Below, one piece after another: positions 30,695-49,154 of a stretch of 64,000 bases of DNA; within the stretch, counting starts at the first letter, position 1; the number at the start of each line of letters is the position of its first letter. The notes below the pieces were generated by a model. The model made no database searches. It saw only the letters and a program-made list of their open reading frames with translations, and was not told where the DNA came from. A program made the position numbers and the translations under genes. This DNA comes from Nitrosopumilus sp. (GTDB taxonomy: Archaea > Thermoproteota > Nitrososphaeria > Nitrososphaerales > Nitrosopumilaceae). Location: assembly GCA_965223425.1 (NCBI GenBank), contig OZ245003.1, positions 1,568,001 through 1,632,000 on the forward strand. The letters run 5' to 3'.

Positions 30695-30774
30695 CGTCAT
30701 GGATGGGATTTGAAACCGTGGTACACGATCAGTGGTTTTCAGTCACCCGCCATACCTAACTTGGCGACCCTGAC
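30695..30774 (-). pseudogene. degenerate copy of the Ser-like tRNA(GAA)
   Basis: 5' 27 nt identical to the 5168 copy; CTGAAAA loop kept; mismatches in acceptor, anticodon and T stems; shorter variable region. Confidence 0.75.
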
Positions 30775-30803
30775 GAGTTTGATTGTTTTTTAAGAATTAA
30801 AAC

Positions 30804-31253
30804 ATGTCGTCAAATCCTTGTAAATATACAATGCCATTGAATGAATCAAAGTTTGTAGTCTCCTATGGCGGCGGTGTGAACTCCACTGCAATGATAATAT
30901 GGCTAATCACCCACAAAAGGCCGATTGACTGTGTCATATTTTCAGATACCGGAAACGAGGTGCCTGAAACCTACAAATACATAGAACGGCACATGGGGCC
31001 GTATCTGGAAAAACGCAACATTCCGTTTGTTGCAGTATACAACTATTCAAAAATATCCCTGTGGGCAAAATGCATGGTAAGAAGGGTATTCCCCGACACG
31101 TACCGCAGATGGTGCACAGGGGATTTCGAGGTACGACCAATACGCCGATTCTACCGGACTCAAAAAAACGGTTCTGTAACGTTGTTGGTACATGAGATAT
31201 GGATCAAACCTACTTATATAATACACGTGTGTTTACTAAACGATAGAAAATGA
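30804..31253 (+). pseudogene. PAPS-reductase-family (PP-loop) protein, C-terminally truncated
   Basis: VVSYGGGVNSTAM, FSDTGNE, RWCT; similarity ends after about 120 aa. Confidence 0.7.
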
Positions 31254-31549: not shown

Positions 31550-32365
31550 TTGAAAAAGATAACCGCCAATCCGATATCCTACCGCCTCAAGGAGGTTCCG
31601 ATTAATTCCGTAACTGTCTGGGACGAGGCGCAGTCAAGGACACTTGATCATGACGGCATATCCTCACTTGCAAAATCTATCCAGCAGGAGGGACTGCAGA
31701 ACCCTCCAATGGTGCAGAGAAATGGCAAAGATGAGTACCTGCTGATGGCAGGACAGAGAAGGCTGGAGGCGCTCAAAAAGCTCGGCGCCAAGACCATTCC
31801 CGTACTCGTACTTGATAATGACAGTGCCTGTGACATAATTGACGCAAAGGCAGTATCTGTGATAGAGAACGTACACAGAAAGGAGATGAACCCGTCGGAC
31901 ATGACAGCATCATGCCAGTTTTTGGTGGAAAAACTTGGCAGGGCAGATGCCGCAAGGGCCCTTGGGATAAAGTCCTCCACTCTGCGCGAGCACCTCGGAT
32001 TTTCCGTGGTGCCGGGCAGAATAAGAAAGATGGTGCCAAAACAGATATCAAGGCGCGACGCAATACGCATATGCCGGAAGGTTCCGTCAGAATCACGGGC
32101 AGAGGAAATAATACAAAAGATAGCAAAGTATGACGTGGCAAAGAAAAGGAGATACATCGATGCGCTGGAACATCTGGGCGGAAGTGCCGAACTCTCAGAA
32201 ATCTCAAAACAGGCAAACTTGTTCAGGGCAAGGCAGAACATACAGGTAAAAATATCAAAAAGACAGGCAATGGGACTGGCAAAAATATCAAAGGAACAGG
32301 AGATGGAGCCGTCAGAGATGGCACACAAGATAGTATCTGACTACCTCCTGCGAAGAGGATACTGA
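31550..32365 (+). CDS. ParB/RepB/Spo0J family protein with RHH-like C-terminus
   Basis: SLAKSIQQEGLQNP, LMAGQRRLEA, ENVHRKEM. Confidence 0.85.
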   Translation: MKKITANPISYRLKEVPINSVTVWDEAQSRTLDHDGISSLAKSIQQEGLQNPPMVQRNGKDEYLLMAGQRRLEALKKLGAKTIPVLVLDNDSACDIIDAKAVSVIENVHRKEMNPSDMTASCQFLVEKLGRADAARALGIKSSTLREHLGFSVVPGRIRKMVPKQISRRDAIRICRKVPSESRAEEIIQKIAKYDVAKKRRYIDALEHLGGSAELSEISKQANLFRARQNIQVKISKRQAMGLAKISKEQEMEPSEMAHKIVSDYLLRRGY

Positions 32366-32424: not shown

Positions 32425-33291
32425 ATGCCGTACAAATGCCTGTGTCCGAGGCCGCACCTTTATGAGGACCGTCACAACGGGGAGATCTGCTGCTCTGTGT
32501 GCGGAACGGTACTTGACTGCGGCACTCCATGTGCCACGGTGCATGCTGAAAAAAACAACCTTGGAATGGATAACTACGGGATAGGAACAAAGCCCGTAGG
32601 CGTGAGAACCGGCCGCATTATCCCGACTGAAACTATGGCAAGCAAGATTTGCCGCAAACGCACGCCAGAGGCCGGGCTGTTTAAGGCGATGATGCCAATA
32701 CTTGAGAAAATTTCGGCCCCGAGGCACATGATGGACGGGTCGTTTATGTTTGGCAGAAAGGTGATCGCCAGCGGGATTGCCAAGAACCGGATGACAGTCG
32801 CAGTAGCTGCCGCCTGCATACTTGCAGTCAGCAGGACTTACAGAAAGGTGATATCTGAGAAGGAGATGGCCGCAATTGCAAACATAGAGAAGAAGAATAT
32901 CGGCAGGGTATACAGGATTATCCAGAAGGAGTTTGGCATTCCTGCTGCGGACCTGTCCCACAGAACGCGGGCGATAATCTCAAAGTCGTGTGCCATGCTG
33001 GGAATTTCAATGCACCTGCAACGCGAATCACTTGAGCTCTTTTCCGTGCTTAACCACCGCGAGATGACTCACGGAAGGAATCCGTACGTCGTGGCAGGTG
33101 CAGTCATATACATGGCTGCAAAAAAACACGGCAATGGGGTGACATTTAAAAAAATGTCAAGCGTGTGCGACGTGACGGCAAATGGGATTATAAACGCCTA
33201 CGAAAAGTTTGCGTGCTGTGACGTGACAAGCGGTGGGGCCGCCGGCGGCCGGAAGAAAATGAGGCCGGCAGGCACTGGTCGACATGAATAG
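32425..33291 (+). CDS. tfb: transcription factor B (TFIIB) homologue
   Basis: Zn ribbon C..H...GEICCSVCGTV; two cyclin repeats (VAAACILAVSR, GRNPYVVAGAVIYMA). Confidence 0.8.
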   Translation: MPYKCLCPRPHLYEDRHNGEICCSVCGTVLDCGTPCATVHAEKNNLGMDNYGIGTKPVGVRTGRIIPTETMASKICRKRTPEAGLFKAMMPILEKISAPRHMMDGSFMFGRKVIASGIAKNRMTVAVAAACILAVSRTYRKVISEKEMAAIANIEKKNIGRVYRIIQKEFGIPAADLSHRTRAIISKSCAMLGISMHLQRESLELFSVLNHREMTHGRNPYVVAGAVIYMAAKKHGNGVTFKKMSSVCDVTANGIINAYEKFACCDVTSGGAAGGRKKMRPAGTGRHE

Positions 33292-34060
33292 CAGGGAGGA
33301 AAGCTCGATGCTGGAATGGTATCCGAAAGTAAAAAGTTTGGACATACCCCAGCCGCAGACGGAAATGGTGGAAATTCCAAACGAGGACTTTTTGGAACTC
33401 GTTGGGAGCGGCAATTGCACTCTCAGGCAATACCAGAAGCGGTTCTCGGACATACTTGACTCACTTGCGCCGTTTCCTGTTTTTTTGCGCAGTGACTGCT
33501 CAAGCCAGAAGCACTCGTTCAAAAGAACATGCAGGCTCCCGGACAAAAAATCGCTGCTGGGCCATATCCTTGAGCTTGTGGACTTGAATTTTGCATGTGG
33601 GCTGACTGACAACGCGCTGGTGTTCCGCAAGTGGCTTGATCTGGACGCGGGCTTTGCGGCATTTGACGGGCTGCCAATAAACACGGAAGCAAGGGTATTT
33701 CTCAATCGCGGTAAAGTACAGTGCATTCATCCGTACTGGCCCGAGGAGGTAATAGAATCATGGATCTGGCATAGGAGCAAGTTGGAGGCTCAATTTGGGG
33801 GAAAACTGCCAAACGCAATAAATCCGAGATGGAGGGAAATCCTAAAGTCACAAAACGACATGGTGACAAAATCAAGGCCCATCCTTGAGAAATACTCAAG
33901 GAAGATAATAGACAGGATCGGCGACGGGTACTGGAGTGCCGACTTTGCGTTTTGTCGGGACGGGCTGTGGTATATGATAGACATGGCCAAAGGCGATGTG
34001 TCATACCACCATCCCGCATGCAGGTTTGACAGTCGCGGAACGGGGGTGTCTCATGGTTAG
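33284..34060 (+). CDS. ATP-grasp domain protein (R2K-like)
   Basis: PVFLRSD..SQKH, EARVF, PYW, WSADF...WYMID. Confidence 0.65.
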   Translation: MNSREESSMLEWYPKVKSLDIPQPQTEMVEIPNEDFLELVGSGNCTLRQYQKRFSDILDSLAPFPVFLRSDCSSQKHSFKRTCRLPDKKSLLGHILELVDLNFACGLTDNALVFRKWLDLDAGFAAFDGLPINTEARVFLNRGKVQCIHPYWPEEVIESWIWHRSKLEAQFGGKLPNAINPRWREILKSQNDMVTKSRPILEKYSRKIIDRIGDGYWSADFAFCRDGLWYMIDMAKGDVSYHHPACRFDSRGTGVSHG

Positions 34061-34616: not shown

Positions 34617-35876
34617 ATGGCGAGGTCCAAAAGAAAAGGTACTAGACTTGCAAGACAATATTATCGGCGTGTAAAAAATATGGACAGGATAACAAAGTAC
34701 TCCAACCAAATAATGGGGGACTTTTCCTTTCTGACACGGAGTGATTCTGGTGAAATTCTTTACTATGAAAATGGAGTATACCGTCCAGGAGGCGGGGTGG
34801 TGATAGAGGTTGAGGCGTACAAACGCGTGAAGAACTGTAACATTAGAATCTGTCAGGAGATAACAAACAGGATTCGCCGCATCACCCAGACCGGCCCGAT
34901 GGCATTCAATTCCAATCACGACCTGATTAACGTGAAAAACGGACTGTTAAACGTAAAAACCGGACAGTTTCTGCCCCATTCCCCAGAGATTCCATTCACA
35001 AATCAGATGAGTGTCATTTATGACAGGACGGCAAAGGCAGAAAAGTTTGAGCAATTCATGAAACAGATACTTCCTGAGAAGGAGCAAACCACAGTATATG
35101 AGATGTTTGCAGCCCCACTCATCCATAATCTTGACTTGGGAAAAATAATGATTTGTGTCGGGGAGGACCCCGGAGGCAAGTCCACACTCTTTGGAGTGAT
35201 GGGGGAGATATATGGGGATGACTGTATCCATGTTCCGATAAATGAAATGATGGCGTTTCATTCCCTGCTGCTGCAAAAAAAACTCAACATCTCCGATGAC
35301 ATACACATCACAAAAAAGGATCTCAAACTACTCAGAAATCTAATCACAAAAAAAGACATGGGCGACACGTGCAAAATGGCGCGTCTGTTCTTCTCATGCA
35401 ACGTAATTGACTGGAAGGGCGGTGAGGAGGACATATTTCGCAGGATAGATTTTGACGTGTCATTCACATCAGGGACAGAAAACCCCAATCTCCTAGATGA
35501 GTTAACTGAAGAGAAAAGCGGCATACTCAACATACTGCTCTCCCATGCAAGGACCCTGCAAGAGAACGGCAGACTCACGCACAGCTATGGGAAAAAATCT
35601 GACAGGCAGATGGGGAATTCATCCAAAACAGATGTGGATGACGCGGTGGTTGACTTTGCGAATGCGTACATTATTCAGTCCGACGACGGCATGGAACCCA
35701 AGGACGGGATGTATGAAAAGTTTGCAATCTTTTGCAAACAGAACAATATACATCCCATGAGCCAATGGTATTTTTCAAAAAAACTGGCAAAACTTGGATA
35801 TAAGTGGAAGAAGAAAAGATTTGACGGACTGCCACAAAATGTCTGGTTGGATGTCAAATTGAAGAGCAGTCTCTAA
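34617..35876 (+). CDS. degenerate D5/P4-type SF3 helicase paralogue
   Basis: INVKNGLL D5_N region; Walker A GEDPGGKST; deletions relative to the downstream paralogue. Confidence 0.75.
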   Translation: MARSKRKGTRLARQYYRRVKNMDRITKYSNQIMGDFSFLTRSDSGEILYYENGVYRPGGGVVIEVEAYKRVKNCNIRICQEITNRIRRITQTGPMAFNSNHDLINVKNGLLNVKTGQFLPHSPEIPFTNQMSVIYDRTAKAEKFEQFMKQILPEKEQTTVYEMFAAPLIHNLDLGKIMICVGEDPGGKSTLFGVMGEIYGDDCIHVPINEMMAFHSLLLQKKLNISDDIHITKKDLKLLRNLITKKDMGDTCKMARLFFSCNVIDWKGGEEDIFRRIDFDVSFTSGTENPNLLDELTEEKSGILNILLSHARTLQENGRLTHSYGKKSDRQMGNSSKTDVDDAVVDFANAYIIQSDDGMEPKDGMYEKFAIFCKQNNIHPMSQWYFSKKLAKLGYKWKKKRFDGLPQNVWLDVKLKSSL

Positions 35877-35879
35877 TAG

Positions 35880-37955
35880 ATGGAAAAACCGGAAGTGGAG
35901 TCTGTGGATTCCCTAGTAAAGTTATTTTCAAAAAAGTTTGGATGCGATCCTGTCAGACTGTCGGCATTTGTCAAAGACCAGACTGCGGAAAATCCCGGAA
36001 AAGTGGTATGTGGGATGGGTGACCACAAGATCGAAAATGAGGAAACAATCCATACTTTTGATGGCGAATCATACAATCTGCAAAGCAATTTCTGCTCGAA
36101 CTTGGAGTGCTTTCTGAGTGGACTGGAGGAGGGAACAATTGATGTGCTTGATGGGAATGATCCAAATCTGAAAAAGCCTGCAAAGAAAAAGGCAAAAAAA
36201 CGCGTCAACACCCCAGATGGGGCCGATGAGGGGGACGAGATTACCCACATTGACTATGCCAGGGAGATTATGGGGGAACATTATTTCCTGACACTGAAGG
36301 ACACTGGTGAAATACTGTACTATGAGGACGGGAGGTACCGCTTTGGCGGAGAGGTCGTAATCACGGAAGAAGCATACAAGGTCGTGCCAGTCTGCAGAAT
36401 CAGCATACTGCGCGAGATCATCCAGTTTATCAAGGCAGACACGTTTGTGGAGCGGGAAATCTTTGATGCGGATCCCGACATCATTAACGTGAAAAACGGA
36501 CTGATCAACATACGCACAAACGAATTCATGGAGCACACCCCAAACATTCCCTCAAGGCAGCAGCTTGATGTGATTTATGACAAGAGTGCAAGGGCGGAAA
36601 AGTTTGAGCAATTCATGGAACAGGTGATGCCTGATTCACAGGAAAAGGCCACAATCTGTGAGATGTTTGCCGCCCCACTGCTACCGAAACTAAACCTCGA
36701 GCTGATAATGGTGTGTGCGGGAGAGGGCTCGAACGGAAAATCGACTTTGTTGAAAATTATGGACAATCTGTATGGCGATGATGCCTGCTCACACGTGTCA
36801 ATACACGATCTGATTGACAACCGGTTCTTCCGCGCGTATCTTGACGGGAAGAAACTCAACATCTGTGCCGATATCAGCAGTGACGAGATGAGTGATTTAA
36901 AAATCATAAAGAGTCTGGTCACGCGTGAGAAAATAACCGTAGAGAAGAAGAACCTGCCTCCGTTTGACATGATAAATACGGCAAGCATGTTCTTCTCGTG
37001 TAACAGACTGCCCGACGTAAAGGAGGATACCGATGCCGTGTTCCGTCGGTTTCGAATTCTGAATTTTGAACAGCAGTTTTCCGGCGATCAGATCAATCCA
37101 TATCTGTTTGATGAGTTGTTGGAGGAAAAAAGCGGCATACTCAACATACTGCTCTCCCATGCAAGGACCCTGCAAGAGAACGGCCGCCTGACATATGGCA
37201 TCAATATCCGCCAGACGCGGAAGGAGTGGAGGGAAGGCGTTGATACTGTTCAGAACTTTTTATCGGCATGTACGGAGGATGTTCAGGGGCAGAACGTTCC
37301 AAAGAACGAGCTGTATCAGAGATATACAAAATTCTGCAGGGGGCGTGGGGATTTGCCAAAGTCAAACAACGGATTCTCCCTGAAAATAACCAGCTTTGGC
37401 TACACGTGGAGGAAGATGTGGCATGAGGGGAAGGGTCAGAACGTGTGGATAGACCTGAAACTAAAGAAGGAGGGGAATAGTAGAGACAAAAATGGTCCAG
37501 GAGATGGGGATGAGATAAGGGCCGTCCCCCATTTGGAGACTGAGAATCCTGATGTAAAATCCAAAGATGGAGACTTTGTGGATGTGAAACCAAAAGATGC
37601 CACTGACTATGAGAATGTGACTTTGGGCGGAAAACCGGAATATGTGGAGGGAGACGAGCCCGGTGTTGGTGTCTTTGTGGATATTTTTACTAATTTGGCC
37701 AAATCCGGCGATGTGGATAGAAAGGAACTGGCCGAAGAGATGGTGAAGAGTGAAAAGTGGAATGAAATGGAGGCAGAAAAGTTGATAGACAATATAATCA
37801 AATCAGGGAGAATCAAGTCAGTCTCAGAAGGAAGGGGTGGGAAATTTTTCTGTGAAACATGCAATGCAGGTCCGTTCACCTCCGGTTCCATGGCCTTTGG
37901 AGGCAAAAAAATTGAGGAATACCATAAAAACCACAAAACAAGGGAGATAGAATGA
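35880..37955 (+). CDS. D5/P4-family SF3 replicative helicase with N- and C-terminal Zn motifs
   Basis: INVKNGLI, GEGSNGKST, NICAD, FFSCN, AVFRRF, winged-helix C domain. Confidence 0.9.
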   Translation: MEKPEVESVDSLVKLFSKKFGCDPVRLSAFVKDQTAENPGKVVCGMGDHKIENEETIHTFDGESYNLQSNFCSNLECFLSGLEEGTIDVLDGNDPNLKKPAKKKAKKRVNTPDGADEGDEITHIDYAREIMGEHYFLTLKDTGEILYYEDGRYRFGGEVVITEEAYKVVPVCRISILREIIQFIKADTFVEREIFDADPDIINVKNGLINIRTNEFMEHTPNIPSRQQLDVIYDKSARAEKFEQFMEQVMPDSQEKATICEMFAAPLLPKLNLELIMVCAGEGSNGKSTLLKIMDNLYGDDACSHVSIHDLIDNRFFRAYLDGKKLNICADISSDEMSDLKIIKSLVTREKITVEKKNLPPFDMINTASMFFSCNRLPDVKEDTDAVFRRFRILNFEQQFSGDQINPYLFDELLEEKSGILNILLSHARTLQENGRLTYGINIRQTRKEWREGVDTVQNFLSACTEDVQGQNVPKNELYQRYTKFCRGRGDLPKSNNGFSLKITSFGYTWRKMWHEGKGQNVWIDLKLKKEGNSRDKNGPGDGDEIRAVPHLETENPDVKSKDGDFVDVKPKDATDYENVTLGGKPEYVEGDEPGVGVFVDIFTNLAKSGDVDRKELAEEMVKSEKWNEMEAEKLIDNIIKSGRIKSVSEGRGGKFFCETCNAGPFTSGSMAFGGKKIEEYHKNHKTREIE

Positions 37956-38580
37956 GTTATGGAAGCGATCGGAAAAAAAATTCATTCCAGTTGTGATTTT
38001 GATATTTTGGAAAAATTGGTTTTGAAAAGTTGTAAAAAATTGAATATCATATATGAAAACGGTAAAAATAGAGTGGTAATAGTTATGATGATCGCTAACC
38101 TTCCAACTTCTTCCAGACTACCTTCATTTCCACTCTCTAGATTTTCGCCTTTTTTGGTAAAAAATGCGATCTTTTTTAGATTTTCTGATCGCAAAATTTT
38201 GTTTTTTGGTGAAAATGACGAAATTCGTTAAAATCCTAAAATTTGAACGGTTAATAATGGCAAATTCCAGTCATTTTTGGAAATTTTAGCGAATTCCGAA
38301 GTTCTATAGGCAGACATCACAAATTAGACAAAAACAAAAAATTTTGATCGCAAAAATTTCGTGCCTAGAATTTGGTGAAAATCGGCCAAAAAACCAATTC
38401 CTTCCAGTCATTCCAGTCATTCCAGTCTTATATTTAGCCCATATAATTGATAAAAATGCGATCCATTTGCCTAAAAAGTGCAGTTATACGGGCTAAATAG
38501 AAAAAGACTGGAATGGCTGGAATGTGGAACATAATTTACAGACCCAGTTCCAACTGGTGCATATCCATCTAATTGGTCAT
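37956..38580. promoter_or_regulatory. AT-rich non-coding putative replication origin with inverted repeat
   Basis: ttccagtc x3 at about 38402-38427; imperfect inverted repeat about 38409-38447 / 38483-38524; recurring gatcgcaaaa / aaaatgcgatc. Confidence 0.6.
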
Positions 38581-39078
38581 GGAACGTCATTTTTGTAAAA
38601 ACGGACTCCAAATTGACAGATAACTGGAATGAATGGAACGTCATTTTTGTAAAAACGGACTCCAAATTGACAGATAACTGGAATGAATGGAACGTCATTT
38701 TTGTAAAAACGGACTCCAAATTGACAGATAACTGGAATGAATGGAACGTCATTTTTGTAAAAACGGACTCCAAATTGACAGATAACTGGAATGAATGGAA
38801 CGTCATTTTTGTAAAAACGGACTCCAAATTGACAGATAACTGGAATGAATGGAACGTCATTTTTGTAAAAACGGACTCCAAATTGACAGATAACTGGAAT
38901 GAATGGAACGTCATTTTTGTAAAAACGGACTCCAAATTGACAGATAACTGGAATGAATGGAACGTCATTTTTGTAAAAACGGACTCCAAATTGACAGATA
39001 ACTGGAATGAATGGAACGTCATTTTTGTAAAAACGGACTCCAAATTGACAGATAACTGGAATGAATGGAACGTCATTT
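38581..39078 (+). repeat. 54-bp perfect tandem repeat, 9 copies plus a partial (iteron-like)
   Basis: ggaacgtcatttttgtaaaaacggactccaaattgacagataactggaatgaat starting at 38581, 38635 ... 39013, partial at 39067. Confidence 0.97.
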
Positions 39079-39147
39079 GATGGTACACAAACTCTCGTTT
39101 TTCAATTTTGATGTAACTTTGTCCAAACTTTTGGTCAAAGTATCTAT

Positions 39148-41586
39148 TTGACTGACAAGAATCTACTCTTTCTCTCCTCAATAATTCAGGATGGAAATAT
39201 GACTTTGAAATTCTATGATGAATCAGAGAGAAAAATAGTGACAGTAAATGCAGGAAAGTACGATCATTATTCTCTGGTCAGAGACGACACAGGAGACATA
39301 ACAAAGCACGACCTAATCACAGACAGGCCGGCCAGGTTTAGGATTTCAACTGACTTGTCGCAGGAAAAAACAAATGAGAAGGAGGTCAGTGACATATCCT
39401 CTTACATATATGACAATAATCTCAACCCCGGCAGGTTCTATACAATTTCCAACGGAAAGATACTTCTCAAAGAAATGGAGATATCAACAGAAATGGAGGA
39501 TGCACTGACTGAAATTATAGACCAGGGCATTGGTTTTGGAATGCCAGATAAGCACAGCTACCACAAACAGATGATAGAGACGGCAAGAATTCTATCTGAA
39601 CCAATCCCCGACATTTCCCGCCTTGCATTTGACATAGAGATCGAGCCGGCCGGAGACGGTGGAATTGATGTAAATCACGCAAGCAAAAAGATAACGGCAG
39701 TCTCCTTTTCATCCAATGACGGTCTTGCCGCATGTCTTGTGCTCGGAGATGAAAACGATACCAGAAAAATATCACTAAAATCCACCGATTTGACAGTACG
39801 GATATTCGATTCGGAATCGGCGATGCTAAAGGAGTCATTTACAATTATGAAGGGATTTCCATGCTGGCTGACTTTTTTTGGCAGACGCTTTGACCTGCCA
39901 TACATGTATAATCGCGCAAATCAGCTTGGGCTGTCCGTCCACAGGGACATGATGACTATGCGCCTAAAGGGCGGGCAGACGATGGCAGCCCCGATAAAAT
40001 CAATACATTTGGACTTGCATGACATCTTTTCCAATCCAGCACTGTACACGTATGCATTTTCTGAGAAATACGGATCATACTCACTTGATGACGTTGCAAC
40101 TGCGATGCTGGGGGAGGGCAAGACCTCGTCAGGCTCCGAGGTGGGAACGATGTCAATGATGGAACTGGCAAAGTACTGCTATCAGGACTCCAAACTCACC
40201 ATGAACCTGACAAAATATGCAAACAATGCCGTGATGAACATGATGGTGATACTGTCGAGAATCTCCGTGATGGGAATTGACGATGTCTCCCAAACCAGGG
40301 TCTCAACCTGGATCTGCTCGATGCTCTGGAACAATCACAGGAAGACAAACGCGATAATACCGCGAAGGGATGAGCTTGACTCCAAGACCACATCACACCT
40401 GAGAATGAGCGAGTCCTCAATAATTAGCGGAAAAAAGTATCGCGGCGGAATGGTTCTGGAGCCAAAGATGGGAGTCCACTGGGGGATGACTGTTCTTGAC
40501 TTTGCCTCGATGTATCCGCACCTGATGCAGATTCACAACCTCTCCTATGAGACTGTGATGTGTCCGCACGAGGAGTGCAAGTCAAACTCCATACCATCCA
40601 CCGAATATCACACGTGCACAAAAAGAAACGGCATGCTTGCAGAGATGATCGGAACGCTGCGTGAGCTGCGCGTGCACGTCTTCAAGCGATTCTCACAGAA
40701 CAGAGAGGTCCCAAAGGAGCAGAGGGAACTCTACAAGATAATTGCCGGGGCAATCAAGGTCTTCATGAACGCAAGCTACGGCGTCATGGGGTCTGACCTG
40801 TTCTCAATATATTACCTCCCAGTAGCAGAGTCAGTCACCGCATCGGGCAGAAAAATAATTGCAGATACGATGGAGCGGTGCAAAGACATGGGGGTGGAAG
40901 TGCTGTATGGCGACACTGACTCGCTGTTTGCTGCTGGAATCACAAAATCCCAACGTGAGAAGATAATATCTGAAACTGCAAAAATTCACGGCACCGAGCT
41001 TGAGGTGGACAAGGAATACAGGTTTGCAATACTTACCGAGCTGAAAAAGAACTATCTGGGAATAATGGAGGACGGATCAAGTGAAATCAAGGGACTGACA
41101 GGCAAAAAGTCACACACTCCAAAATTTATAAGAAAATCATTCCGCGACGTTGTGAAAATTCTCTCCGACGTAAAGTCCGAGGAGGAGATGGGGCCGGCAA
41201 TCAGGCAGATCATCTCGCACATACAGCGGGACATAGAGAGAATCAACACCCATGACATATCACTGGAGGATCTCACATTTAGGATGAAGATAACAAAGCC
41301 GATCTCAGAGTACACAAAGAGCCAGCCGCAGCATGTCACGGCAGCAAAGATACTTGGGGAGAAGTGCGGTGTGGAGGTGCAGCAGGGAAGCGTAATCCAG
41401 TACATCAAGACTGCAACTGCGCCGTATGTCACTCCCATGGAGCTTGCAAACATCGACTCCATCTCCACAAAAAAATACACAGAGTCACTCTCATCTGTCA
41501 TGGGGCAGATACTTCCCGCGCTTGGCACCTCGATGGAGGTGATAATTACCGGCTCCAAGCAGGACTCCATTGAGAGCTTTACATAA
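39148..41586 (+). CDS. polB: family B DNA polymerase (archaeal B1-like, RNA-primed type)
   Basis: FDIE, FDLPY, YCYQD exonuclease motifs; LDFASMYP, KVFMNASYG, YGDTDS, KKNY; CPHEEC insert. Confidence 0.95.
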   Translation: MTDKNLLFLSSIIQDGNMTLKFYDESERKIVTVNAGKYDHYSLVRDDTGDITKHDLITDRPARFRISTDLSQEKTNEKEVSDISSYIYDNNLNPGRFYTISNGKILLKEMEISTEMEDALTEIIDQGIGFGMPDKHSYHKQMIETARILSEPIPDISRLAFDIEIEPAGDGGIDVNHASKKITAVSFSSNDGLAACLVLGDENDTRKISLKSTDLTVRIFDSESAMLKESFTIMKGFPCWLTFFGRRFDLPYMYNRANQLGLSVHRDMMTMRLKGGQTMAAPIKSIHLDLHDIFSNPALYTYAFSEKYGSYSLDDVATAMLGEGKTSSGSEVGTMSMMELAKYCYQDSKLTMNLTKYANNAVMNMMVILSRISVMGIDDVSQTRVSTWICSMLWNNHRKTNAIIPRRDELDSKTTSHLRMSESSIISGKKYRGGMVLEPKMGVHWGMTVLDFASMYPHLMQIHNLSYETVMCPHEECKSNSIPSTEYHTCTKRNGMLAEMIGTLRELRVHVFKRFSQNREVPKEQRELYKIIAGAIKVFMNASYGVMGSDLFSIYYLPVAESVTASGRKIIADTMERCKDMGVEVLYGDTDSLFAAGITKSQREKIISETAKIHGTELEVDKEYRFAILTELKKNYLGIMEDGSSEIKGLTGKKSHTPKFIRKSFRDVVKILSDVKSEEEMGPAIRQIISHIQRDIERINTHDISLEDLTFRMKITKPISEYTKSQPQHVTAAKILGEKCGVEVQQGSVIQYIKTATAPYVTPMELANIDSISTKKYTESLSSVMGQILPALGTSMEVIITGSKQDSIESFT

Positions 41587-43167
41587 ATGTCGATGATTGA
41601 ATCGTTCCCCCCGCAATATACTATGCGAAGCGCGCAGAAAAGCATAATCGGAAGGATAGAGGAGGCAACAAAGTCCGGATATCCAAACATCGTGGTGTGC
41701 GCTCCTGTGGGTGTCGGCAAGAGCCACATTGCAGTCACATTTGCCAGGCACTTTGGGGGCTCCTCCATAATTACGCACCAAAAGGTACTGCAGGACCAGT
41801 ATGCCGATAACTTTCGGTTTTTGGCATCGGCAAAGGGCAGGCAGAACTATCCCTGCATAATGATCTGCAATGACGTTGATCCTCACGGGAAGAACCGGAC
41901 GGGGCCTGAGACCACCTGTGCAAACGGAAAATGCTCGTATAGATACGGCGGAAAGACACGCTGGTGCGAATACAAGCCGAAGATTGAGGACTTTGAGACA
42001 ATGCCGGCAGGCGCAGTAGTCGGGCCGTCAGGGGCGTGCCACTACTACAACGCAAAATACATTGCCATGCTCTCAAAGCACTCGCTGTACAACTATGCGG
42101 CATACTATCACTTTAAGCGGTTTGGAAATACGAGGATGGACAGCGAATGCGTCGTAGCCGATGAGGCACACGAGATAGAGGAGACGCTGGTTAACCATGC
42201 CTCCATCACCATTCCAAGGGACGACTTTCGGATGTGCGGGCTTGACATGCCAAAGGGGAACATAGACGACATCCTGGACGGACTGGGGGAGATTGTCAAG
42301 ACATGCTACGGGGAAATCCGCTCTGCAGGGATTGATGCAGACACGCAGAGGTGGAAGAGGCTGGAGGAAAAGTGCTCTACCATATCATTTGAGGGACGAA
42401 AAGACCCGGAGAACATAGTTTTTGAGATAAAAAACGGCGAGATTGCGCTAAAGCCGGTAAGCGTGAAGGGAATGGCCAGAAGGATGTTTGATGGGAAGCG
42501 AAACCTGTTTCTCTCTGGGACAATACACGGAGAGATGTTCTGCGGAATGATGGGGATAGACTCCCGAGATTGCCGGTACATCGAGGTGAAGGACCATCCA
42601 TTTGAGCTAAAAAACAGGACCATGCATTTTTTAAACTCGGCAAGGCTGACAGAAAAATCAAGGGAGACAGACTTTGATGCGGCATATACTTCCGTAGTCA
42701 GAATTCTAGCGAAACATCATGATGAAAAGGGAATCATACTTACCACGTCAAAAAAGCAGTGCATGCAGCTGTCGGGAAAAATAAAAAACCGCGAGGTCAT
42801 CATGGCCTTTGGACCAAAGAGGGACGAGGCAGTAAAGAGGCACGTGGAGTCACCCAGACCGTCCGTGCTTCTTGCTCCAGGGATGTGGAGTGGGGCGGAT
42901 CTGTCAGGGGAAAGGTCGAGGTTTCAGATAATTTTGAAGGTTCCATATCTGTCCATGGCAGACATCCGAATAAGTCACAAGACACACCTCTGGTACAAAT
43001 ATCAGGCATTGGTCAAGTTTCTGCAGGGGTGCGGGAGGTCTGTCAGACATGAGACGGACTATTCTGTTACATATGTCATCGATTCGGGGATAGCTGATCT
43101 TGTCAGGAGCATGCGAAAGTACATTCCTGCGGCGTATCTTGATGCGATAGACATGGCGATGCAATGA
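41587..43167 (+). CDS. DinG/XPD/Rad3-like SF2 helicase
   Basis: APVGVGKS, KGRQNYPC, DEAH, LSGT, QGCGRSVRHETD. Confidence 0.9.
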   Translation: MSMIESFPPQYTMRSAQKSIIGRIEEATKSGYPNIVVCAPVGVGKSHIAVTFARHFGGSSIITHQKVLQDQYADNFRFLASAKGRQNYPCIMICNDVDPHGKNRTGPETTCANGKCSYRYGGKTRWCEYKPKIEDFETMPAGAVVGPSGACHYYNAKYIAMLSKHSLYNYAAYYHFKRFGNTRMDSECVVADEAHEIEETLVNHASITIPRDDFRMCGLDMPKGNIDDILDGLGEIVKTCYGEIRSAGIDADTQRWKRLEEKCSTISFEGRKDPENIVFEIKNGEIALKPVSVKGMARRMFDGKRNLFLSGTIHGEMFCGMMGIDSRDCRYIEVKDHPFELKNRTMHFLNSARLTEKSRETDFDAAYTSVVRILAKHHDEKGIILTTSKKQCMQLSGKIKNREVIMAFGPKRDEAVKRHVESPRPSVLLAPGMWSGADLSGERSRFQIILKVPYLSMADIRISHKTHLWYKYQALVKFLQGCGRSVRHETDYSVTYVIDSGIADLVRSMRKYIPAAYLDAIDMAMQ

Positions 43168-44132
43168 CGGGTCACGCGATAGAAAAGTATGTGTTCGAGG
43201 GCGGCATGGAGGCACTAAAGGAACTGAAATTTCCAATCGGGGATGTCCTGGAGGGAAGAACAGACTGCGACAAATCAGTACTAAGGGAGGCAATGGCGGG
43301 GATAATATCGGCGGCAACAGGAAAAAGGATTGATGCCGGCGGCACTCCGGCACTAGTCCATGGCAGGCCGTATCCAAAAAATGCCGTGATGTTTTCCCTC
43401 TCTGCAATAATGCTAAAGGCAGTCGACAGGGAAACTGTCACAAAAAAGTACGCGCTGGCCCACTCCATTAGGGCCGAAAAGAGGATAGAGTCTGAGATTT
43501 TAAGAGGCGGGTTTGGTGGAATTGTGCGCAAACTGGTTCTGGGAGTAAGGATAGATGAGCCGTGCATGATGCCGGTATCCGAGTATCTGAGGCGTGCCGT
43601 ACACATCGGCGAGTCAAAGTGGAGTCTTGTAAACAGAAGGGTGGAGGAGGGGATGGTATTGCTTGCAGTTCATGAGATGGTCCGGCTCCTGCGGTGGGAC
43701 ATCACCAGCACTATAGAGGCGGCAATCAATGAAATTAACGTTACGGAGAGAACGGCAAAGCTGGTAGAAGATTATACAAGAAAGATAATGGAGGCCGTTC
43801 CAAAACAGATATCCACAAATGTCGGCGAGTCTGGATGGCCGCCATGCATACGGCACGCAATAAAGTATCTGTACGGCGGCGGGAACCTGAATCATACTGG
43901 GAGATTCATGCTTGCATCATATTTAGTAAAGGCAGGTGTCAGCAAGGAGGTGATATGCGGGCACTTTGTTCCGGCACCGGACTATAACGAGAGGGTGACA
44001 AGCCAGCAGGTCGAGCACATAAGGCGCGGAAAATACATCCCGCCGTCATGTGCAAAGCTGGAGACTTTGGGACTCTGCCACAGGAACCGGAAATGTGGAA
44101 GCATACGCAATCCGATACAGTACCGCCAATGA
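43164..44132 (+). CDS. priL: DNA primase large subunit
   Basis: WSLVNRRVEEG, WPPCI, LNHTGRF, PDYNERVT, PPSC...GLC...C Fe-S ligands. Confidence 0.9.
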   Translation: MTGHAIEKYVFEGGMEALKELKFPIGDVLEGRTDCDKSVLREAMAGIISAATGKRIDAGGTPALVHGRPYPKNAVMFSLSAIMLKAVDRETVTKKYALAHSIRAEKRIESEILRGGFGGIVRKLVLGVRIDEPCMMPVSEYLRRAVHIGESKWSLVNRRVEEGMVLLAVHEMVRLLRWDITSTIEAAINEINVTERTAKLVEDYTRKIMEAVPKQISTNVGESGWPPCIRHAIKYLYGGGNLNHTGRFMLASYLVKAGVSKEVICGHFVPAPDYNERVTSQQVEHIRRGKYIPPSCAKLETLGLCHRNRKCGSIRNPIQYRQ

Positions 44133-45286
44133 ACCGCATACTCCACGGCGACTGTACGGAGAGGCTGGCGGAAATAGAGTCAGAAACCGTGGATCTCCTT
44201 GCAACTGATCCGCCGTACGGATACGGATTCCTGGGAAACTCCTGGGACTCTGATGTGCCGACATCCCAGGCATGGAGTGAGTGCCTCAGATGTCTCAAGC
44301 CCGGGGCCTTCGCTTTTGTTTTCTCTTCACCGAGGGCAGACCTCATGTCAAGGATGATAACGAGACTTGGCGATGCGGGGTTTGTCACCGGGTTTACGCC
44401 GATATTTCGGGCCTTTGCGGGGGGATTCTCAAAGGGGAGAAACGTTGCAGATGTGCTGGGGCCGGACCACGAGCTGTATCAACGGCTGAGGGGCTCATAC
44501 ACCGGGTATCACCCAAAGGCTGCCGTGGACGTGGTGATTGTCGCAATGAAGCCGCTCTCAGAGTCCACGTTTACTGCGCAGTCCTGCAGGAACGGCAAGG
44601 GGGTCACGTGGCTTGATGATGTCAGAATTCCGGCAGATCCGGCAGATGGTGACGGTAATAGCAGTGGCGGAAGGTTTCCTGCAAACCTGGTGGTCTCTGA
44701 TGACTCGCTCAATGACGGCAGGGAGCACAAGAGCGGGGTGGTTTTCCCACACCACAATATCACAGGAAAGAAATACCTGTACGACAAGTACGGACACAGG
44801 ACGGCATCGGACACTGTCTGCTATGGCGACTCTGGATCTTTTTCCAGGTTCTTTGACATTGACAAATGGGAGGCGCAGTTCATTGTTGACAGCCGTCCAA
44901 CGCGGGCCGAGATGGATGCCGGAGTGACTCCGCAGAGCGGGCCTCTTGCGGAACTCTGTTCGAATGAAAAACCGGACGGCAGTGGAGTGAGAAACAACAC
45001 ACACCACACCGTAAAGTCGATTGTGTTCATGTCTTATTTGGTAATGATGGGGACAAGGCGCGGCGATACCGTCCTTGATCCGTTTGCCGGATCTGGTACT
45101 ACGGCAATTGCCGCAACGCTCCTTGGAAGGGACTCCATATCGATTGAAATTGAGCACAAGAACTACATGATGATCAGGGAGAGGGCGGAATACTGGAAGA
45201 ACAGGCAGTACGGGAACATCTCGAAGATAAAGAAACAGGATGAGGCAGAATCGCAGACAGACATTACGGAATGGGTAGAGGACTGA
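44129..45286 (+). CDS. N4/N6 DNA methyltransferase (beta class)
   Basis: TDPPYG precedes VLDPFAGSGTT; GRFPAN; ATGA overlap with priL. Confidence 0.9.
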   Translation: MNRILHGDCTERLAEIESETVDLLATDPPYGYGFLGNSWDSDVPTSQAWSECLRCLKPGAFAFVFSSPRADLMSRMITRLGDAGFVTGFTPIFRAFAGGFSKGRNVADVLGPDHELYQRLRGSYTGYHPKAAVDVVIVAMKPLSESTFTAQSCRNGKGVTWLDDVRIPADPADGDGNSSGGRFPANLVVSDDSLNDGREHKSGVVFPHHNITGKKYLYDKYGHRTASDTVCYGDSGSFSRFFDIDKWEAQFIVDSRPTRAEMDAGVTPQSGPLAELCSNEKPDGSGVRNNTHHTVKSIVFMSYLVMMGTRRGDTVLDPFAGSGTTAIAATLLGRDSISIEIEHKNYMMIRERAEYWKNRQYGNISKIKKQDEAESQTDITEWVED

Positions 45287-45660
45287 CCGTGAGGGGGATG
45301 CCGCAGTGGCCGTGCGCATATGATGACTGTACCGTGATGCTCAATGACGTTGATAATTTTATAACACGAAAATACTGCGACAGTCACCGAAAGATAAGGC
45401 AAAAGGAGCAGAACAGGACAAAAAACTTGAAACGCCCGAGGAAGTGGAAGGGAAAGAAACGGAACTGCGTCGTGTGCGGGGCGGCACTGAAGAATGCGAC
45501 GAGATACTGCGGGAAGGCATGTCACAGATGGCAGGCCAACCGAAACAGGCAGGCAAGAAAAACAGTCGGCCTGTGCCATTTGTGCTACTCTAGCAACAGG
45601 GAGCTGAAAATTGTCGCCGGAATTCCGATGTGTGTGGAATGTGCCGAGAAGAAGGAATGA
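45271..45660 (+). CDS. Cys-rich Zn-finger protein
   Basis: multiple CxxC / YC motifs. Confidence 0.6.
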   Translation: MGRGLTVRGMPQWPCAYDDCTVMLNDVDNFITRKYCDSHRKIRQKEQNRTKNLKRPRKWKGKKRNCVVCGAALKNATRYCGKACHRWQANRNRQARKTVGLCHLCYSSNRELKIVAGIPMCVECAEKKE

Positions 45661-45881
45661 CGGCAGAGCAGATATTGTGTATTTTGATCAGGGAAATTTC
45701 TTTTTGTGGTATTATCATCTGCAGATCCGCACAAATTACGGCATCGACTGATATGAATATCTGAAATGACCGTCCGGCCGCTTGACTATGAAAAGGAACC
45801 TGCTGTTGATTTGAATGCCCCGTGTCCTGAGCTGGACGAATCAATATCGTTGCAGAGAAACTATCTTTTTGGAAAGGAAGT

Positions 45882-46064
45882 ATGAATTTCAACATTAATG
45901 TAAAATGCAGAATATGCGGAAGGCTGTTTTCGAAAAAAACAAACGACAAAAGGACAGTGACATGTTCACGGGAATGCAGCATGGAGAACGCCAAAAGAAC
46001 GTCAAGGGAATGGCATGCCAGCCGCCATAGAAAGAGGGCTGGCACCAGTAAAAATGAACTTTGA
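45882..46064 (+). CDS. small Zn-finger protein
   Basis: CRIC...CSREC. Confidence 0.55.
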   Translation: MNFNINVKCRICGRLFSKKTNDKRTVTCSRECSMENAKRTSREWHASRHRKRAGTSKNEL

Positions 46065-46259
46065 GACTGGGACAAGACGTGCGGCCCATGACAGGGACTG
46101 GCGCGGCAAAAATAGCATGCACGTTCCCATGAAAAAGGAACGGGAAATGGACAGCAAATGCAAACACAGGGCGTTCATACGCATGTCTGACGGCAGAAAA
46201 ATCTGCAGTCACTGCTTCAGTCAGGTCGGTGCCGCCGCCAAAAACCACTGCCGTGGAAG

Positions 46260-46697
46260 GTGAAGAATAAATTGCCTAAAACGTTCAGCTTCGCGCAAGC
46301 TTTGCTGTCTGACCCGCTTCATGTCCATCTGCTTAAAATATGTGTGGATGAAAAAATATTTGATTCTCATGACGACGGCACATATTCGTTCAACAGCAGT
46401 TTCATCCACATATTCAGGTCAGTCACGATAGACCAGGAAATGCACAGGTCCTCTCACATACCCGTGACGGTCAGGGTTTTGGAAAGTATGATGCGTACAT
46501 ACTGTTCATCAGAATTTGACGACATTACCAGGAACTTTTTGTCAGCCATGATTCTGCGCGTACTTGTGACGGATCCCGCCTATCCGGAAACGGAGAAGGA
46601 CAGAATATCGCACTACATGAAAAATATGAATTCCATGAATGACGCCAAATATGACAAACAGAAAAGGGAACTCCTTGAGAGGGAAAAATTACGGTGA
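46260..46697 (+). CDS. hypothetical protein
   Basis: 145-aa ORF with GTGA overlaps. Confidence 0.55.
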   Translation: MKNKLPKTFSFAQALLSDPLHVHLLKICVDEKIFDSHDDGTYSFNSSFIHIFRSVTIDQEMHRSSHIPVTVRVLESMMRTYCSSEFDDITRNFLSAMILRVLVTDPAYPETEKDRISHYMKNMNSMNDAKYDKQKRELLEREKLR

Positions 46698-46971
46698 CAC
46701 AAATGAAACCACAACACAACGATCCAATGTCTGGCGTATTGGACATGGGCCTGTCCTGCGGCAGGGCAAATCCGTCGGACGTCTTTGTCAAAAAATGTGT
46801 CAGATGCAGTATGATTTTTGAATCGTCATTTGATTCCAAACGTCCCACATGCTCGGACTGCAGCCCAATTTCAAAGAGGAAGAGGAAAAATCACTGAGCC
46901 GGATTTTTTTCAACGGAGTGACACGCCCGAAACCGGGCATGCCTGCCTTTGTTCGTGCGCGACGCCAAGCC

Positions 46972-47388
46972 ATGCAGTATCGTGATCGTCCCAACTCAAA
47001 AATGAGGCTCTTCAACAAAATACTGAACATACTGGATTCAATCCGGCTGGACGAGCCGTTTGAGTACGAGTCGGAACTGGAAGAAAGGGTGGCAAGGCTG
47101 CTAAGGTCAGAAAACATAAAGTCAAAGACACAGCAAAAATCAAAGGATCTGAGATATGACGTGATCTGCAATGAGGGTTCTACTGTAGTATGCATCGAGC
47201 TGAAAGTGATTGCAGACACCTCAAATGTGAAACAGTTTGACGAGTATCATCAGAATTTTCCAAACGGCTTTATAATTCTGTGCTGGCGGGCGACAGGGCC
47301 GCTAAGGGACATATTTGAAAGCGTGAAGAGGCAGAGCCCGACATCAATTGCACTGGTAGAGATATCACAGAGGAGCAGCATGATATGA
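46972..47388 (+). CDS. PD-(D/E)xK nuclease-fold protein
   Basis: ESELE...RYDVI...CIELK...QFDEY. Confidence 0.65.
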   Translation: MQYRDRPNSKMRLFNKILNILDSIRLDEPFEYESELEERVARLLRSENIKSKTQQKSKDLRYDVICNEGSTVVCIELKVIADTSNVKQFDEYHQNFPNGFIILCWRATGPLRDIFESVKRQSPTSIALVEISQRSSMI

Positions 47389-49154
47389 ACTACGGCACGC
47401 TGACTGTAAAAAGAGAGGAGAACGAGGAAATAATTCAGATTGATGTGGAAGACAACGAGGTGGGACTGTTCTTCTCAAGGCTGATTCCATCACACGATAT
47501 TTTTCCATTCACCGTCAAGGCCCACACGGATAACGTGCGGCTGATCAGAATGGTGATGAGGGAGTACCCGCTTGAAATCAAGACAAGGGATGCATGGAAG
47601 TCACTATTGAACGGAATAAGAGAGCAGAAAAAACAGGAAAAAAAACTGGAGACACTGGTGCCAATAGAGCCGAGCAGGCAGAAATTCATCGGGGAATTGT
47701 TCCCGTTTCAGAAACTGGGCCTGGACTTTATGCTAAAGGCAAAGGGAATGGCGCTTCTGGCCGACGAGATGGGCCTTGGAAAAACCATTCAGACTCTGGC
47801 GTTCATATCAAAAAGACCTGACAGCGTTCCCGCAATAATTGTGGCGCCGCTAGTTACGCTATACAACTGGAAGCGGGAGATTGAGAAATTCCTGAGACTG
47901 GAATGTAAAAACACGCTGTGTGGAGACTCGCTACAGACGCCACGGGTGGAAGTAATAAGGTCCGGGAAAAAGAAGCCGGGGCCCGCCGAGTTTTACATCA
48001 TAAACTATGAGATGCTCATGAAACAGGTCCCACACCTCAAGCAAACAAATCCGAAAATGATCGTATACGATGAGATACAAAACCTGAGAAATACGGACAC
48101 TTACAAGTTCAAGTCATGCAGGGCCCTGGCACAGCTGGACTCGGTACGGTACCGGCTGGGGCTGTCCGGGACGCCCGTCTATAACCGTGGAACAGAGATG
48201 TACGGCATTGCAAACATTATACGGCCCGGAGTACTTGGTGACTATGAGGAGTTCAAAAGAAGGTACTGCACTCCATATGTGCCAAACCGCACGGAGGATG
48301 ACAAAAGGACGGCACTCTCAAAAGTACTGAGGAAAAGCATAATGATACGCAGAAAAAAGACGGACGTGCTGCGGGATCTGCCGGAAAAAATACGCATGCA
48401 GCAGAGAATCCAGATTGATACAGAGTTCTACGAGGAGGAACTCGGGAAATTATACGAGAGGATAGAGGAGATAAAGGATTGTATGGGTGAGTTGGAAACG
48501 GAGGACGGGAAAAAGGAGGGACTCTTCTCGCTGAACAAGAAGATAAGGGAGATGCGGGTTGCAGAGCGCCAGATTGCAGGAATTGCAAAGGCGCCACACA
48601 TCATAAACTATGTCACGTCGTTATTGGATGACTATGAGGAGGAGAAATTCGTGATTTTCGCCCATCACAGGATGGTACATCAGATACTGTTGGAGGGGCT
48701 GCGGATGTACAATCCCCTTCAGATCATAGGGGGGCAGAGCGACAAAAAAAGACAGGAGGCAATCGACAGGTTTCAAACCGAGAAGGAATGTCGCGTGATA
48801 ATATGCGGCCTGCGTGCCGGAAATGTCGGAATCAACCTGACCAGTGCGGCATATGTCATCTTTGCGGAACTTGACTGGAGTCCGTCAATTCACAGGCAGG
48901 CAGAGGACAGGCTGCACAGAATAGGACAGAAGAAGAGCGTGTTTTCGCACTATCTGGTGGGTACTGGGACCTTTGATGAGATGTTGGCGGACGTTCTTGC
49001 AGACAAGACGCTGGAGATTGGCAACGTGCTTGGGGACAAGCTGGAAGGCCTGGACAACACAAAGGCGCTAAAGTTCCTTGAAGACAAATTCAAGATACGG
49101 CCGGGGTTCATTGCCGATGACATGACATCAGAAAAGAACGGGAAAAATAAGTAA
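47385..49154 (+). CDS. SNF2-family helicase (HARP-like)
   Basis: LADEMGLGKT, DEIQ, LSGTP, QAEDRLHRIGQ. Confidence 0.92.
   Translation: MNYGTLTVKREENEEIIQIDVEDNEVGLFFSRLIPSHDIFPFTVKAHTDNVRLIRMVMREYPLEIKTRDAWKSLLNGIREQKKQEKKLETLVPIEPSRQKFIGELFPFQKLGLDFMLKAKGMALLADEMGLGKTIQTLAFISKRPDSVPAIIVAPLVTLYNWKREIEKFLRLECKNTLCGDSLQTPRVEVIRSGKKKPGPAEFYIINYEMLMKQVPHLKQTNPKMIVYDEIQNLRNTDTYKFKSCRALAQLDSVRYRLGLSGTPVYNRGTEMYGIANIIRPGVLGDYEEFKRRYCTPYVPNRTEDDKRTALSKVLRKSIMIRRKKTDVLRDLPEKIRMQQRIQIDTEFYEEELGKLYERIEEIKDCMGELETEDGKKEGLFSLNKKIREMRVAERQIAGIAKAPHIINYVTSLLDDYEEEKFVIFAHHRMVHQILLEGLRMYNPLQIIGGQSDKKRQEAIDRFQTEKECRVIICGLRAGNVGINLTSAAYVIFAELDWSPSIHRQAEDRLHRIGQKKSVFSHYLVGTGTFDEMLADVLADKTLEIGNVLGDKLEGLDNTKALKFLEDKFKIRPGFIADDMTSEKNGKNK

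Follow-up and report, generated by a model that had tools for sequence, protein, structure and literature searches.

A predicted replication module joining an SF3 helicase, a cellular-type DNA polymerase and an orphan primase subunit in a 162.3-kb thaumarchaeal integrative element

Introduction

How might a large integrated element in the chromosome of an ammonia-oxidizing archaeon be copied when its genes pair a phage- or plasmid-type helicase with a DNA polymerase and a single primase subunit of cellular type, and where would copying begin? The question is raised by a stretch of 64,000 nt from a Nitrosopumilus sp. genome (G000, comprising 2.51 Mb and a 123-kb contig, C2), here called the window: positions 1,568,001 to 1,632,000 of contig OZ245003.1, assembly GCA_965223425.1, or G000:C1:1568001-1632000. 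Coordinates past its end continue the window's numbering and are given as island coordinates (island 74051-77069 is G000:C1:1642051-1645069). An earlier note on the window's letters had described a co-oriented block of replication genes around an array of identical 54-bp repeats, and had proposed a near-autonomous replisome within an element of possibly undescribed class. From the comparisons that follow we consider it fairly probable that positions 34617-44132 make up the module that replicates an integrative-conjugative element (ICE) of 162.3 kb, that the gap at 37956-39198 is its likely origin, and that the two work in the way set out in the Discussion.

Results

Genes of the replication module

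Both the co-oriented block and the perfect 54-bp array were borne out (Pfam and Tandem Repeats Finder), all genes lying on the + strand. The central gene (35880-37955, +) encodes a D5/P4-family superfamily 3 (SF3) helicase of 691 aa, which matches DUF5906 at 78.1 bits and TIGR01613 at 200.9 bits (cut-off 108.7). Alignments of its orthologues show conserved GKST, FFSCN and FRRF motifs, the marks of the P4/D5 SF3 family, together with small conserved Cys/His-rich N- and C-terminal domains. No family match to a primase domain, either archaeo-eukaryotic (AEP) or Toprim, was found in it with Pfam, NCBIfam or PHROGs, and since only the C-terminal halves of the PHROG primase-helicase profiles align with it, the helicase appears to have no primase of its own. 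Directly upstream lies a truncated, divergent paralogue of 419 aa (34617-35876, +; D5_N 44.9, Pox_D5 30.1 bits), which scores 22.3 bits for DUF5906 against a cut-off of 27.6 and also falls under the TIGR01613 cut-off. It is 45% identical to the intact copy and, because the N- and C-terminal regions of the latter, along with about nine residues in the vicinity of VEKK, are missing from it, the label 'degenerate' that the earlier note had given it is fair.

Beyond the gap follows a family B DNA polymerase gene (PolB; 39199-41586, +; DNA_pol_B 170.3 bits), the true start of which is probably the in-frame ATG at 39199. The protein is 41% identical to the host copy over 777 residues and contains the stretches FDIEIE, DFASMYP and YGDTDS, which we take to be Exo I, motif A and motif C. 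The CPHEEC insert, singled out earlier as a cellular signature, is present in element and host PolB alike, and the element protein reaches 747.5 bits for NF004417, under the cut-off of 780. Judged by these sequences, the element PolB appears to be of the cellular (Nitrososphaeria PolB1) type and not protein-primed. The next gene (41587-43167, +) encodes an XPD/DinG-like superfamily 2 helicase with GVGKS, DEAH and a Cys-rich insert (Pfam, NCBIfam), and the last of the module (43164-44132, +) the primase large subunit, PriL (PF04104, 66.4 bits); its cysteines C228, C296, C305 and C311 are all invariant, and it stays below the NCBIfam equivalog cut-offs (143.7 versus 339). The earlier picture of a large integrated element that mixes a phage- or plasmid-type SF3 helicase with cellular-type PolB and PriL is one with which these matches agree.

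No gene for the catalytic primase subunit, PriS, was found in the element; PriS occurs once in genome G000, adjoining the host PriL. Our Pfam scan covered 175 different open reading frames (ORFs) of the island, 80 singly and 95 through two alignments, and in the island ORFs scanned there was no family match to PCNA, clamp loader, single-stranded-DNA-binding protein, ligase or flap nuclease. Because the element relies on the host for most replisome parts, 'near-autonomous' had overstated the case.

The gap between the helicase and polymerase genes

The proposed origin is an intergenic region of 1243 bp (37956-39198) with a GC content of 31-35%, versus 45% for as much of the element as the window contains. 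Three tandem 9-bp units, TTCCAGTCA (38402-38427, +), form the left arm of an inverted set of iterons, and two 9-bp-phased TGGAA units, GACTGGAATGGCTGGAATG (38504-38524, -), the right arm; between them lies an AT-rich spacer of 76 nt (38428-38503, GC 30%), which holds a 22-nt inverted repeat and is a candidate unwinding element. The inverted repeats reported earlier in the gap were recovered as a 21-nt pair (38409-38429 and 38504-38524), 95% complementary across a spacer of 74 nt. Further to the right, the tandem array comprises 9.3 units of 54 bp (38579-39078; Tandem Repeats Finder score 1000, 100% matches), and every unit contains ACTGGAATGAATGGAAC, in which two sites are spaced by 9 bp and oriented like the right arm. 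Reading frames that traverse the array owe their existence to 54 being divisible by 3; they were taken as spurious, since relatives have arrays with periods that are not.

In all, TTCCA or its complement TGGAA occurs 35 times in the gap, or 28 per kb versus 4.2 per kb in the remaining window. Counting the array as a single unit still leaves 18 motifs in 797 bp; shuffled sequence gave 1.6 +/- 1.3, and none of 2000 shuffles reached 18. Corresponding gaps in related elements (introduced below by their genome numbers) are likewise enriched over the rest (13.0 versus 1.6 per kb in G056, 19.0 versus 2.5 in G129 and 10.6 versus 2.4 in G263), and in G056 and G129 phased GTTCCA pairs face each other across a spacer as they do in G000, which brings this layout to three of five genomes. 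Because a short motif keeps its position across proteins only 40-48% identical, the comparison argues for TTCCA as a functional, predicted binding site, and the layout of the gap suggests a candidate iteron origin. The tandem arrays themselves differ among relatives: that of G129 has 4.2 units of 17 bp, G263 has several, one of them with 4.5 units of 84 bp, and an array may be missing altogether. The perfect 54-bp array looks like a recent, lineage-specific amplification.

It is this variability that a rival account exploits: the 54-bp array, and perhaps all TTCCA sites, would serve partition, as a centromere-like site, or copy control (by handcuffing or incompatibility), with a ParB-like or other DNA-binding protein of the element, and not the helicase, bound there and the origin elsewhere. 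Nine copies that are 100% identical, in an array whose length varies in relatives, suggest a dosage-type site and not a fixed origin core, and the element does encode several ParB-like proteins and an actin-like segregation protein. Set against this, in four of the five elements the motif-rich gap still adjoins the genes for helicase and PolB, the ParB genes are not adjacent to it, and inverted sets around an AT-rich spacer are typical of origins. We regard this account as unlikely, noting that partition or copy-control and origin roles are not mutually exclusive.

Conservation of the module and separation from host copies

When the helicase was searched against 301 genomes of the class, 47 gave matches, full-length at 44-47% identity only in G056, G129, G163 and G263. 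The first three, which like G000 are Nitrosopumilaceae, keep the order helicase, gap, PolB, XPD-like helicase, PriL; in G263 it is rearranged to PolB, gap, two helicase paralogues, XPD-like helicase, PriL. Each of the four genomes has exactly two PolB genes. In G000 the host PolB lies at C1:1.16 Mb and the host PriL, 34% identical to that of the element, at C1:0.21 Mb, which excludes the case, raised earlier as one that would undo the proposal, that the block's PolB and PriL are the host's only copies. A second PriL is present in six of the 301 genomes, five of them the module carriers and the sixth G221, which was not examined (the count takes in the unpublished genomes G293, G244 and G147, with one copy each); of the 68 genomes in its genus, G000 alone is a carrier.

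Trees against the host copies, which the earlier note had suggested, place both proteins of the element in clades of their own. In the PolB tree (50 rows, with the 10 near-duplicates P0003, P0004, P0012, P0015, P0016, P0023, P0028, P0030, P0106 and P0120 left out), the five element copies belong to a clade of 13 rows with a Shimodaira-Hasegawa-like approximate likelihood ratio (SH-aLRT) support of 99. This clade is long-branched, lies outside that of the host family and also holds three metagenomic proteins and a six-member group (P0025-P0029 and P0033); the group sits within a 12-row subclade that leaves out the G263 copy, and one of its members, P0027, has no match at E <= 1e-280 in the 301 genomes. 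Six host PolBs lie in a separate 17-row clade with support 100. The PriL tree (11 rows) splits element from host copies at 100/100 and groups G000 with G056 and G129, as does the PolB tree. Because gene order is kept and both trees stand apart from the host copies, the module is, on the evidence of order and trees, inherited as a unit in a lineage of mobile genetic elements (MGEs). The genomes that host it span 39% to 67% GC, and in three contiguous relatives VirB4 homologues lie 20-113 kb from the module (the G263 homologue is 51% identical).

A scan of IMG/VR with the single helicase gave no match; with the helicase alignment A3 there were matches at 23 genome, 80 metagenome and 44 viral (IMG/VR) loci. 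Translated searches (tblastn) of 144 of these 147 loci (L090-L233; the module had already been seen at the other three, L087, L088 and L089) found PolB, XPD and PriL together only at L103, and at none of the 44 IMG/VR loci. Four module-bearing genome loci duplicate the four genomes, by their match figures, and were counted once. At a further locus, L090, a 51-kb contig, the helicase (39% identical) stands beside an actin-like gene with no PolB; the contig is titled a Poribacteria metagenome-assembled genome, has 58% GC and may be an archaeal mobile element mis-binned with a bacterium.

The genes to the right of PriL behave differently. An N6/N4 DNA methyltransferase (44048-45286, +; Pfam), small ORFs and an SNF2-family helicase (47385-49154, +; Pfam 143.6 bits; 46% identical to a paralogue at another chromosomal site) do not accompany the module in related elements. 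The methyltransferase, a putative nuclease ORF and SNF2 (44048-49154) are more likely accessory cargo outside the conserved module, the methyltransferase likely serving as cargo or in anti-restriction. The putative nuclease (46849-47388, +; 179 aa in translation) had been called a PD-(D/E)xK enzyme, an assignment that our searches did not confirm: it shows a D...ELK motif alone and has no match in Pfam, NCBIfam or PHROGs. To the left of the module, a conserved hypothetical protein (33284-34060, +; no family match) has a homologue, 48% identical by tblastn, that adjoins PriL in the G163 element.

A possible primase partnership

Does a PriL without a PriS of its own still have a partner? In structure models of host PriS with element PriL the interface score ipSAE is 0.90, a mark reached by 58 of 80 solved complexes and by two of 110 mismatched pairs; none of three controls exceeded 0.00. 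The three runs share at least 64% of their contacts, and the predicted local distance difference test (pLDDT) of the partner is at least 81. The modelled interface consists of PriL residues 137-164 and includes the invariant Y141, W153, L155, N157, V160 and G163. PriS-PriL is a textbook solved pair, so the model speaks for likeness of the interface and not for binding as such; read in this way, it supports the view that the element PriL retains a PriS-binding interface and may pair with the host PriS.

Boundaries and integration site

Four genomes of the same genus (G009, G007, G006 and G012) run parallel to the window as far as 11031 and resume at island 173306, their empty site having a single copy of the 11-bp repeat TAAACGATTAA at the junction, and the insertion in G000 therefore measures 162.3 kb (11,032 to 173,305). 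It occupies an intergenic site. G000 has one copy of the repeat per end: the attL core at 11018-11028, recognized from the jump in synteny and the relatives' empty site, and attR, outside the window, at island 173310, with no further copy in 180 kb; the core being only 11 bp, a comparison of the left flank with the downstream 400 kb gave no useful exact repeat of at least 16 nt. An earlier size of more than 53 kb was right as to a large element, the true extent by synteny outreaching the window.

The tyrosine integrase named earlier is intact (11078-12760, +; 560 aa; PF00589 35.2 bits), lies 50 bp inside attL and is the sole Phage_integrase match within the island in a scan of genome G000. GC content climbs from about 36% to about 45% at 11-12 kb and remains high for about 160 kb. 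A recombinase, flanking att repeats and an empty site in relatives, by which integration of thaumarchaeal ICEs is recognized, are thus all found here.

Conjugation genes and class of the element

Extension of the contig, which the earlier note had proposed as a way to find attR and a conjugation module, yielded attR and conjugation-type ATPases. Beyond the window the island encodes a T2SSE (VirB11/FlaI-type) ATPase (107.5 bits) and a VirB4-like ATPase (P-loop_TraG 55.6 bits, plus DUF87 and AAA_10), where the window itself had earlier shown no VirB4; the VirB4-like and VirD4/TraG-like genes are adjacent, at island 108051-109910 and 109907-112627. Directly upstream of the replication block a ParB-like gene (31550-32365, +; ParB_N 47 bits) adjoins a TFIIB homologue (32425-33291, +; TFIIB 70.7 bits), and additional ParB-like proteins are encoded at 24812-25549 and island 69663-70568. 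According to the available text of Krupovic et al. 2019 (PMC6563490), thaumarchaeal ICEs are defined by paired VirB4 and VirD4, by ATPases of FlaI/PilT type, by components of membrane and pilus and by the coupling of TFIIB to ParB; the island carries every one of these marks save the membrane and pilin components, for which Pfam gave no match. Because the VirB4-like, VirD4-like and T2SSE ATPases and the ParB-TFIIB pair match this published signature, the element is, by its predicted genes, a thaumarchaeal ICE of a known class.

This bears directly on the undescribed class of MGE that the earlier note had entertained. A self-replicating integrative element of a new class, or a provirus so far unrecognised, with no relation to the known thaumarchaeal MGE classes, would fit the fact that more than half of the island ORFs have no family match, and that the combination of D5 helicase, PolB, XPD and PriL is absent from the literature as far as it was available to our search; thaumarchaeal capsid proteins are, moreover, hard to detect by profile. 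We nevertheless hold it to be very improbable, given the VirB4/VirD4 pair, the T2SSE ATPase and the ParB-TFIIB pair. Nor does any capsid, terminase or portal family occur among the 175 island ORFs (divergent archaeal capsids could escape the profiles), so that the earlier remark on missing capsid and terminase genes holds for the extended contig too; the 44 viral loci without PolB, XPD and PriL point the same way. Ten ORFs of the window (eight without a Pfam match, the helicase and a gap ORF) gave no structural match in PHROGs, and no Cas1 family match was obtained in the 175 ORFs.

Other content of the island and its surroundings

The island also encodes an actin-like segregation protein, ArdC-N, DUF2958, several restriction-modification systems and a dnd cluster (Pfam). 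A TBP homologue lies in the part between island 100 and 173 kb (Pfam TBP, E 4.9e-10), and with TBP and TFIIB the element may bring along basal transcription factors of its own. Large unannotated proteins at island 90870-107058 have homologues in a second conjugation-like cluster of the genome (G000:C1, about 889-924 kb), which contains a VirB4-like gene, a T2SSE ATPase and an actin-like homologue and is without the D5-PolB-PriL module; genome G000 probably has two ICEs.

A two-gene pair of methyltransferase/Eco57I-like type stands twice in the island, at window 54232-57245 and, inverted, at island 74051-77069; the copies are about 71% identical in nucleotides and 59-70% in amino acids. Three phosphorothioation clusters of dndB-E/iscS type occur in the genome, one on the island (window 62746 to island 68744) and two at G000:C1, about 827-833 kb and about 874-880 kb. 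An insertion sequence (IS) of 1.37 kb with a DDE transposase stands at island 88864-90243 and has dozens of near-identical chromosomal copies; several further IS families are abundant in G000:C1. The host tRNA-Phe gene with its flank (window 5063-5479, about 420 bp) is repeated in inverted orientation at 30466-30868 with 83% identity, where Rfam reports a weak tRNA only (30695-30774, -), and this repeat may be a relic of an earlier integration or captured host DNA. A tRNA-Leu(aag) was predicted in the island by ARAGORN (61480-61551, -) and was not reported by Rfam at the gathering score. Two other repeats, a perfect 24-bp x 6.2 repeat at 6138-6287 within the host ORF 6110-7060 and 63- and 129-bp repeats at 60505-60932 within the island ORF 59683-61245, are probably both coding repeats. 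Contig C2 (123,097 bp, GC 47%) has four Phage_integrase matches and no terminal overlap, and the island proteins found no match on it; it may be a plasmid or an unplaced island.

Discussion

Considering these results together, we suggest the following course of events for the module. Once the element has been excised, or has entered a new cell, the D5/P4 SF3 helicase would bind the 9-bp-phased TTCCA sites of the gap, and the AT-rich spacer of about 75 bp that is flanked by opposed sites would be the point at which the duplex opens. The array of nine 54-bp units would supply about 19 extra sites, which could serve initiator loading or copy control. The helicase would then act as the replicative helicase instead of MCM, with DNA synthesis by the element's own cellular-type PolB. 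The element PriL, coming without a PriS, would recruit the host's catalytic subunit, as the modelled interface allows, and the host would supply clamp, loader, single-stranded-DNA-binding protein, ligase and flap nuclease.

Several observations weigh against this account, and against the ICE to which it is tied. On the side of replication, the cumulative GC skew makes no turn at 38-39 kb, the motif enrichment in the G163 gap is weak (3.6 versus 1.7 per kb), and the AlphaFold2 model of the helicase, built on a six-row alignment, is poor (mean pLDDT 61). On the side of transfer, the VirD4-like matches barely pass (T4SS-DNA_transf 21.8 with a cut-off of 20.1; TraG-D_C 24.3 with a cut-off of 22), and Pfam recognized no VirB6, TadC, prepilin peptidase or pilin family, nor VirB3, among the 175 ORFs. 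The island is moreover mosaic in composition, with IS copies, and could include nested elements. Finally, the depth of the element is not above that of its flank (872 versus 1021-1049 in X3; 5.0 versus 5.3 in X1). Contigs of two runs from two studies cross attL without differences, with no joint or loose end there, and give no sign of an excised or amplified form, although such contigs drop rare variants and a rare form is possible.

The lack of a coverage excess or an excised form in these contigs would also suit a module that serves transfer-linked DNA synthesis (for example, priming and completing the incoming strand), or damage tolerance and repair of host or element, and not autonomous vegetative replication. 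The XPD-like helicase belongs to a family known from repair (by its Pfam and NCBIfam names), and archaeal operons that contain PolB have been proposed to act in repair, as the available part of PMC6563490 relates. An SF3 helicase of initiator type by an iteron-rich, AT-rich gap is, however, the standard layout of a plasmid or phage replicon, and the genes of the module evolve together and separately from their host counterparts; we think it quite improbable that transfer or repair is the module's function, and continue to favour replication of the element from the gap.

How far is such a module known? In the available text of PMC6563490, thaumarchaeal ICEs resemble the element in the tyrosine integrase, the VirB4/VirD4 pair, the FlaI/PilT-type ATPase, TFIIB by ParB and restriction-modification cargo. 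They differ in size, 162 kb here being well above the published ICE median of 64 kb (and above the largest cryptic element, of 98.3 kb), and in gene order, TFIIB lying upstream of ParB there and ParB before TFIIB here. Within that same text the only PolB among ICEs is that of NitEve-E6, which is casposon-like, whereas the present one is of cellular type; 'PriL' and 'D5-like' occur zero times, and no element with PriL or a primase-less D5 helicase is described. ThaMY3-E2, the one further large element described there as bearing a PolB, is like ours a large thaumarchaeal integrated element with a PolB homologue and a replicative helicase; compared by its description in the available text, it has MCM and not SF3, and at 98.3 kb it is the largest cryptic element, with no conjugation genes reported (PMC6563490).

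The alpha protein of phage P4 recognizes short iterons in ori and crr. Among helicases, P4-alpha, the D5-type primase-helicases and pRN1 ORF904 share with the element's protein the SF3 core, the winged-helix-like Pox_D5 region and a gene beside a cis-acting site, as far as the available parts of PMC2777425 and PMC4234260 go, whereas the element's helicase has no N-terminal primase or prim-pol domain and occurs together with PriL and PolB of cellular type. Thaumarchaeal casposons of families 1 and 2 are similarly integrated and have a family B polymerase of their own. Casposons, however, have Cas1 and terminal inverted repeats, in contrast to the direct repeats and integrase found here, where there was no Cas1 match in the 175 ORFs and PolB aligns along its entire length with the replicative PolB of the host, at 41% identity.

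In the literature searched, so far as it was available and with the supplementary tables of PMC6563490 lying outside it, there was no thaumarchaeal element with cellular-type PolB, PriL and a primase-less D5 helicase. The conserved module of SF3 helicase, gap, PolB, XPD and PriL seems previously undescribed. What is new here, then, is a giant ICE with an undescribed conserved replication module and a readable candidate origin, the ICE class itself being known. Tentatively, and as a possibility on which we would place less than even weight, we suggest that there is a lineage of giant ICEs in marine and symbiotic ammonia-oxidizing archaea with a chimeric replisome, in which SF3 takes the place of Cdc6/MCM, an iteron origin is used, PolB is the element's own, and an orphan PriL captures the host PriS.

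Ammonia-oxidizing archaea are major players in the nitrogen cycle, and neither a plasmid vector nor a genetic system is known for them, nor any genetic system for Nitrososphaeria. A conjugative element with a mappable candidate origin and its own initiator helicase is a concrete candidate for a replicon and a transfer system, and, if our proposal is true, the 1.2-kb gap together with the gene of the helicase would give Nitrososphaeria its first defined autonomous replicon. An orphan PriL would be an unusual strategy of takeover, in which only the catalytic primase subunit is stolen from the host. An SF3 helicase working with cellular-type PolB and PriSL would be a natural hybrid of viral and cellular replisomes, which bears on how MGEs recruit and exchange replication genes.

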